A stretch of DNA of 64,000 nt from Escherichia phage DCP2. The stretch is from sequence record OR780565.1, one strand, 5' to 3'. This document shows, piece by piece, positions 19,050 to 19,734 of the stretch (position 1 is its first letter; every line of letters starts with the position of its first letter). The translations under genes were made by a program, and so were the position numbers. The notes under the pieces were generated by a model. That model searched no databases, was not told the origin of the DNA, and was given only the letters and a program-made list of their open reading frames with translations.

Positions 19050-19279
19050 TGTCTGAACAAACTATTGAACAAAAACTGTCTGCTGAAATCGTAACTCTGA
19101 AATCTCGTATTCTTGATACGCAGGACCAAGCGGCTCGTCTGATGGAAGAATCCAAAATTCTGCAAGGAACTTTGGCTGAAATTGCTCATGCAGTAGGTAT
19201 CACTGGCGATACTATTAAAGTTGAAGAAATCGTTGAAGCTGTCAAGAATCTTACTGCTGAATCTGCAGATGAAGAATGA
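19049..19279 (+). CDS. 57A: Tail fibre assembly chaperone gp57A
   Basis: 76-aa acidic coiled-coil ORF starting [14 protein letters not shown]; ATGA coupling to gene 1. Confidence 0.85.
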
Positions 19280-19734
19280 TGGAATTTAAAGACTTTTCAA
19301 CGGGTCTTTATGTAGCAGCTAAGTTTTCAGAATTAACACTTGACGCGCTGGAAGAACTCCAGCGCTCTTTACGTGTTCCTAATCCAGTTCCTAGAGAAAA
19401 AATTCATTCGACCATATGTTATTCGAGAGTAAATGTTCCATATGTTCCATCGAGTGGAAGTTTTGAAGTAGCTTCTTCTGGACATTTAGAAGTGTGGAAA
19501 ACACAAGATGGATCGACTCTTGTACTTGTGCTAGATTCTGAATATCTGCGCTGTCGACACATGTATGCGCGGGCACTAGGTGCTACACACGATTTTGATG
19601 ATTACACACCGCATATAACATTGTCTTATAATGTTGGGCCCTTATCATTTAGCGGTGATGTACAAATTCCGGTTGTACTTGACCGTGAATACAAAGAGCC
19701 TCTTAAACTCGATTGGGCAGATGATTTAAAATAA
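19276..19734 (+). CDS. 57B: gp57B, 2H-phosphoesterase (anti-CBASS Acb1 family)
   Basis: 152 aa; two H-x-T motifs (KIHST, TPHITL); position after 57A. Confidence 0.8.

Follow-up and report, generated by a model that had tools for sequence, protein, structure and literature searches.

Acb1 of bacteriophage T4 is the closest described system. A 3'3'-cGAMP-degrading activity was purified from T4-infected cells and traced to gene 57B, whose product was named Acb1 (NP_049750.1) (Hobbs et al., 2022; Nature 605:522, PMC9117128). In the same study, the lysate of a T4 Δacb1 mutant was devoid of this activity, and the H44A/H113A variant served as the catalytically dead control. T4 Acb1 cleaved 3'3'-cGAMP as well as cUA and cAAA; it did not cleave cGG or cA4. 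The activity set in about 15 min into infection; the Δacb1 mutant was impaired more than 300-fold in the presence of CBASS and grew normally in its absence (PMC9117128). In an independent screen, transposon insertions in 57B were depleted only on a CBASS-expressing host (bioRxiv 10.1101/2025.11.20.689424). The importance of acb1 is thus host-dependent, and the gene is dispensable on CBASS-free hosts.

Crystal structures of Acb1 from Erwinia phage FBB1 (7T26, apo; 7T27, with 3'3'-cGAMP) revealed a 2H phosphoesterase fold in which the ligand is bound in a U-shaped pocket and a C-terminal lid, residues 145-152, closes over it. Residues Y12, W74, F107, and W147 provide base stacking, the N6 of adenine is contacted by E141, and the HxT/HxT tetrad H44, T46, H113, and T115 carries out metal-independent acid-base catalysis via a cyclic-phosphate intermediate (PMC9117128). 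The pigeonpox cGAMP phosphodiesterase and the coronavirus and rotavirus 2',5'-oligoadenylate phosphodiesterases belong to the same 2H/LigT-like fold class and likewise direct two-histidine chemistry against host immune signals, although they differ from Acb1 in their hosts and in some substrates (2',5'-oligoadenylates, 2'3'-cGAMP) (Nomburg et al., 2024, PMC11410667).

The window analyzed here is a stretch of 64,000 nucleotides from Escherichia phage DCP2 (OR780565.1), and the features discussed are collected in Table 1. An earlier note on this DNA, made from the letters alone, had described a 152-aa open reading frame with the motifs KIHST and TPHITL directly after 57A and had proposed that it encodes the same counter-defense enzyme as T4 57B. 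Both the coordinates and the motifs were found as described, and alignment with T4 gp57B (NP_049750.1), the protein named Acb1 in PMC9117128, showed 152 identical residues out of 152 (100% amino acid identity). The orthologue of the BASEL phage Bas37/KarlGJung is likewise identical to the DCP2 protein.

Table 1 Features of the acb1 region and related loci in the DCP2 window. Positions count from the first nucleotide of the window.
Feature	Position	Strand	Basis and remarks
HNH-type homing endonuclease, 224 aa	16963..17637	+	phrog_655, E=2.6e-59; inserted where the homologues of genes 2 and 3 meet
MotA-box-like middle-promoter motif	18273	+	Upstream of gene 1; pattern match only
Gene 1 (dNMP kinase)	18324..19049	+	Pfam DNMK, E=6.9e-107; opens the conserved 1-57A-57B block
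Late-promoter-like site TATAAATA	18686	+	Inside gene 1, 363 nt before 57A; pattern match only
Gene 57A (tail-fiber assembly chaperone, 76 aa)	19049..19279	+	Pfam GP57, E=2.7e-50; 97% identical to T4 57A
acb1 (gene 57B)	19276..19734	+	152-aa 2H phosphoesterase, anti-CBASS protein Acb1; ATG start
First HxT motif, H44-S45-T46 codons (KIHST)	19405..19413	+	Read from the sequence
Second HxT motif, H113-I114-T115 codons (TPHITL)	19612..19620	+	Read from the sequence
Left copy of 39-nt direct repeat flanking the ip cassette	19747..19785	+	Repeat search
Promoter-like site in left repeat copy, GTTTACA-N17-TACTAT	19748..19776		Score 9/12, extended TG; pattern match only
ip6/Bas37_0260-type internal (injected) protein gene, 77 aa	19811..20044	+	ipI locus, between 57B and trna.4
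Right copy of 39-nt repeat	20045..20083	+	77% identical; upstream of the trna.4 homologue
HNH endonuclease, 210 aa	21063..21695	+	phrog_14736, E=6e-124; sits where ZN18 and T4 have tRNA-Gln
Single internal-protein-like gene, 93 aa	28553..28834	+	Replaces T4 ipII and ipIII at the ipII/ipIII locus
acb2 (vs.4 homologue, cyclic-nucleotide sponge)	30903..31169	+	11.2 kb downstream of acb1

Profile and structure searches agreed with this identity. The Pfam family PF23474 ("Anti-CBASS protein Acb1") matched the product with E=2.7e-60 and 202.7 bits, against a curated threshold of 27 bits, and the match covered profile positions 1-144 of 144. The FBB1 Acb1 structures 7T26 and 7T27 matched residues 9-149 with E=4.2e-62, while a second deposited Acb1 structure, 9Q2G, gave a weaker match. 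Over this crystallized part, the identity to 7T26_A was 68%, which is enough to assign the 2H phosphoesterase fold from sequence and makes FBB1 Acb1 the template for the mechanism considered below. The HxT/HxT tetrad is common to the two proteins, as are Y12 and W147 among the stacking residues; FBB1 Acb1 differs by a one-residue insertion after position 80, by F instead of W at position 74, and by Y instead of F at position 107.

When the published functional residues were examined one by one, all nine (Y12, H44, T46, W74, F107, H113, T115, E141, and W147; list of PMC9117128) were found at their stated positions, and the C-terminal lid (145-152) lies within the product, which runs to residue 152. 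An alignment of eight Acb1 sequences, taking in Jiaodavirus, Bragavirus, Krischvirus, Pseudotevenvirus, an Acinetobacter phage, a Vibrio phage, and the FBB1 crystal sequence, showed H44, T46, H113, T115, and Y12 to be invariant at identities down to 39%. The two catalytic histidines, on whose conservation the earlier proposal had been made to depend, are therefore in place. Two of the five histidines of the DCP2 protein fall in HxT motifs. Taken by themselves, the motifs are mildly unlikely to arise by chance (a few per cent by rough estimate), and it is the homology that is decisive. No evidence against the assignment was found. We thus identify the open reading frame, with a probability of roughly 97%, as a Tequatrovirus acb1 (57B in T4) and take the encoded protein to be a small, metal-independent 2H phosphoesterase that destroys CBASS signals. 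The gene encodes an exact copy of an enzyme characterized by biochemistry, structure, and genetics, lies in its usual place, and is in this sense already known; its value here is that of a landmark and an annotation fix only.

Given what is reported for the identical T4 protein, the substrates, the mechanism, and the rescue from CBASS should carry over to DCP2 Acb1. The U-shaped pocket would bind the cyclic di- and trinucleotide messengers made by the CD-NTases of CBASS, and the C-terminal lid would shut over the ligand, with Y12, W74, F107, and W147 predicted to stack on the bases and E141 to read the N6 of adenine. The HxT/HxT tetrad would then promote attack of an adenosine 2'-OH on the 3'-5' phosphodiester, leading through a cyclic-phosphate intermediate to a linear product, for example GpAp. 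Once the signal is gone, effectors such as Cap5, CapV, Cap4, and similar proteins would stay inactive, and the phage cycle could be completed.

The public name of the gene points elsewhere. T4 57B and its orthologues are called "RNA ligase" in RefSeq (NC_000866, NC_054945, and others), phrog_755 has the same label, and only a few records, for example PP355090, use "anti-CBASS protein Acb1". Taken literally, the name would make the 57B product a LigT-type RNA-repair enzyme, that is, a 2'-5' RNA ligase or a 2',3'-cyclic phosphodiesterase acting on cleaved tRNA or RNA ends and not on immune signals. The fold of Acb1 is indeed 2H/LigT-like, and 2'-OH attack via a cyclic phosphate is chemistry common to Acb1 and RNA-processing 2H enzymes. 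However, Acb1 was the sole Pfam match to the 57B product at E<=0.01, with no LigT or 2'-5' RNA ligase family among the hits, and an NCBIfam search gave no match, so that membership of the product in a LigT or 2'-5' RNA ligase family was rejected. The identical T4 protein was purified precisely as a 3'3'-cGAMP-degrading activity, the defect of the Δacb1 mutant is CBASS-specific (PMC9117128), and none of the papers retrieved describes a ligase activity of the 57B product. We consider an RNA-repair role highly improbable. The name appears to have been carried over from the LigT-like fold, with no experiment found to back it; the RefSeq and PHROG label is obsolete and should be replaced by "anti-CBASS protein Acb1".

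Even less credible is that DCP2 acb1 is a silent or decaying remnant, neither expressed nor needed, that looks conserved merely through recent divergence from T4. Its non-essentiality on CBASS-free laboratory hosts would agree with such a remnant, but the pattern of substitutions would not. DCP2 acb1 and T4 57B differ at 10 nucleotides, and all 10 differences are synonymous, which is the pattern expected if purifying selection acts on the protein and very unlikely otherwise, since by rough estimate about three quarters of random changes alter the protein. The reading frame is also intact, its overlap with 57A is exactly as in T4, and a tblastn search of 50,697 phage records recognized homologues in 1485; in 445 of these, the identity was >=99%.

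The surroundings of the gene were compared with those in T4 and other phages. Matches to the region 18300..20700 were found in 820 phage records; its nucleotide identity to Yersinia phage vB_YepM_ZN18 was 99.9%. DCP2 and T4 share the gene order 1-57A-57B-ip-trna.4-trna.3-trna.2-tRNAs, and in both acb1 follows 57A, with genes 1 and 57A upstream. A tail-fiber chaperone gene also lies directly upstream of the acb1 homologue in Escherichia phage MIZ3 (Krischvirus), Vibrio phage D483, and RB43 (Pseudotevenvirus). In DCP2, the TGA stop codon of 57A and the ATG of acb1 overlap by 4 nt (ATGA) in the sequence gaagaATGAtgg, a frame overlap shared with T4 that suggests co-transcription and possibly translational coupling of the two genes.

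Two promoter-like sites upstream, one resembling a MotA box and one a late promoter, could drive middle- and late-type transcription of 57A-57B; acb1 may be co-transcribed with genes 1 and 57A from such promoters. Together, the two sites could fit an Acb1 activity that is reported to set in at about 15 min. A sigma-70 promoter scan returned 16 sites against 13.4 +/- 4.2 in shuffled sequences and was thus not enriched, so all promoter statements made here are to be read as pattern matches only. A scan of 18000..21200 for intrinsic terminators found none.

Downstream of acb1, the locus departs from T4. The earlier note had placed acb1 next to ipI and had regarded this part of the genome as an anti-defense neighborhood. 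The open reading frame in question does occupy the 57B-trna.4 locus, as T4 ipI does, and it begins with the same type of signal, MKT(Y/F)(Q/K)EF; no similarity to T4 IPI, a GmrSD inhibitor, extends past the first ~14 residues. BLASTP against T4 IPI aligned residues 1-14 only, with 7/14 identical, and the 26% identity obtained in a multiple alignment is not meaningful. An assignment to ipI was therefore rejected, and the T4 neighbor ipI is replaced in DCP2 by a gene of the ip6/Bas37_0260 type. Its product shows 100% identity to the Shigella phage JK08 protein "ip6" as well as to KarlGJung Bas37_0260, and it was matched by phrog_8111 ("internal virion protein", E=1.2e-52). It carries both marks of a T-even internal protein, namely a position in one of the two ip loci and a capsid-targeting signal, here MKTYQEFIAE at the N-terminus, which is identical in T4 IPII and IPIII.

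The three T4 proteins IPI, IPII, and IPIII are inhibitors of GmrSD, each directed at a different one. The protein identical to the DCP2 neighbor, Bas37_0260, is reported to act against McrBC and not GmrSD: deletion of bas37_0260 rendered Bas37 specifically McrBC-sensitive, and the protein was described as a new inhibitor of type IV restriction, with only the signal sequence in common with IPI-III (HIDEN-SEQ preprint, bioRxiv 10.1101/2025.11.20.689424). Since the neighbor is 100% identical to a reported McrBC inhibitor, the idea of an anti-defense neighborhood holds, through a different gene than the ipI first named. The argument from adjacency is itself not new; Hobbs et al. made the same point for acb1 and ipI of T4.

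The ip cassette of DCP2 is flanked by two copies of a 39-nt direct repeat. Both copies hold an early-promoter-like GTTTAC-N17-TACTAT followed by TACCCTATC. Most close relatives have ip5 and ip6 at the 57B-ip locus, corresponding to 331 extra bases, whereas DCP2 and ZN18 have only ip6; in the relatives with both genes, three repeat copies were found, 331 and 298 nt apart. A repeat of ~39-71 nt with an early-promoter-like site precedes each ip cassette. These repeats are plausible substrates for the gain and loss of cassettes by homologous recombination. A bolder proposal is that the 57B-ip junction is an actively exchanging site for anti-defense cassettes, at which DCP2 perhaps lost ip5 by recombination between repeats, an ip5-like paralogue being present at the ipII/ipIII locus. 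We regard this as unlikely; if true, the repeats would form a dedicated device for re-sorting the injected proteins that counter restriction, with acb1 as the fixed anchor. The locus has been known to be polymorphic since Repoila et al. (1994), and the cassette-exchange proposal would therefore be incremental.

At the ipII/ipIII locus itself, the product of the single internal-protein-like gene is 48% identical to the ip5-type Bas37_0261, which is encoded next to acb1 in other phages. The single-gene arrangement has precedents in other Tequatrovirus records.

A second anti-CBASS gene was found in the window. The acb2 product is identical to T4 Vs.4 in 87 of 88 residues and was matched by Pfam PF24729 (Acb2_Tad1_hairpin) with E=7.6e-20. 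With acb1 identical and acb2 nearly so, DCP2 carries both anti-CBASS genes of T4. Combined loss of acb1 and acb2 renders T4 highly CBASS-sensitive, and detection by Panoptes during T4 infection requires Acb2, not Acb1. The presence in DCP2 of acb1, acb2, and an injected protein of a type IV restriction inhibitor type is relevant to host range and to therapy against strains bearing CBASS or McrBC.

Two HNH endonuclease genes lie in the vicinity of acb1 and break up the gene order seen in T4 and ZN18. The blastn match between DCP2 and ZN18 stops at 21080 and restarts at 21699, around the downstream HNH gene, and ARAGORN detected 10 tRNAs at 21702..22645, with no tRNA-Gln among them. The same arrangement occurs in 63 other phage records over the full query region. 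The upstream HNH gene is absent from T4, ZN18, and 232Ecol030PP and is present in 36 other Tequatrovirus records, again over the full query region. With 36 and 63 phage records carrying them, neither insertion is unique to DCP2.
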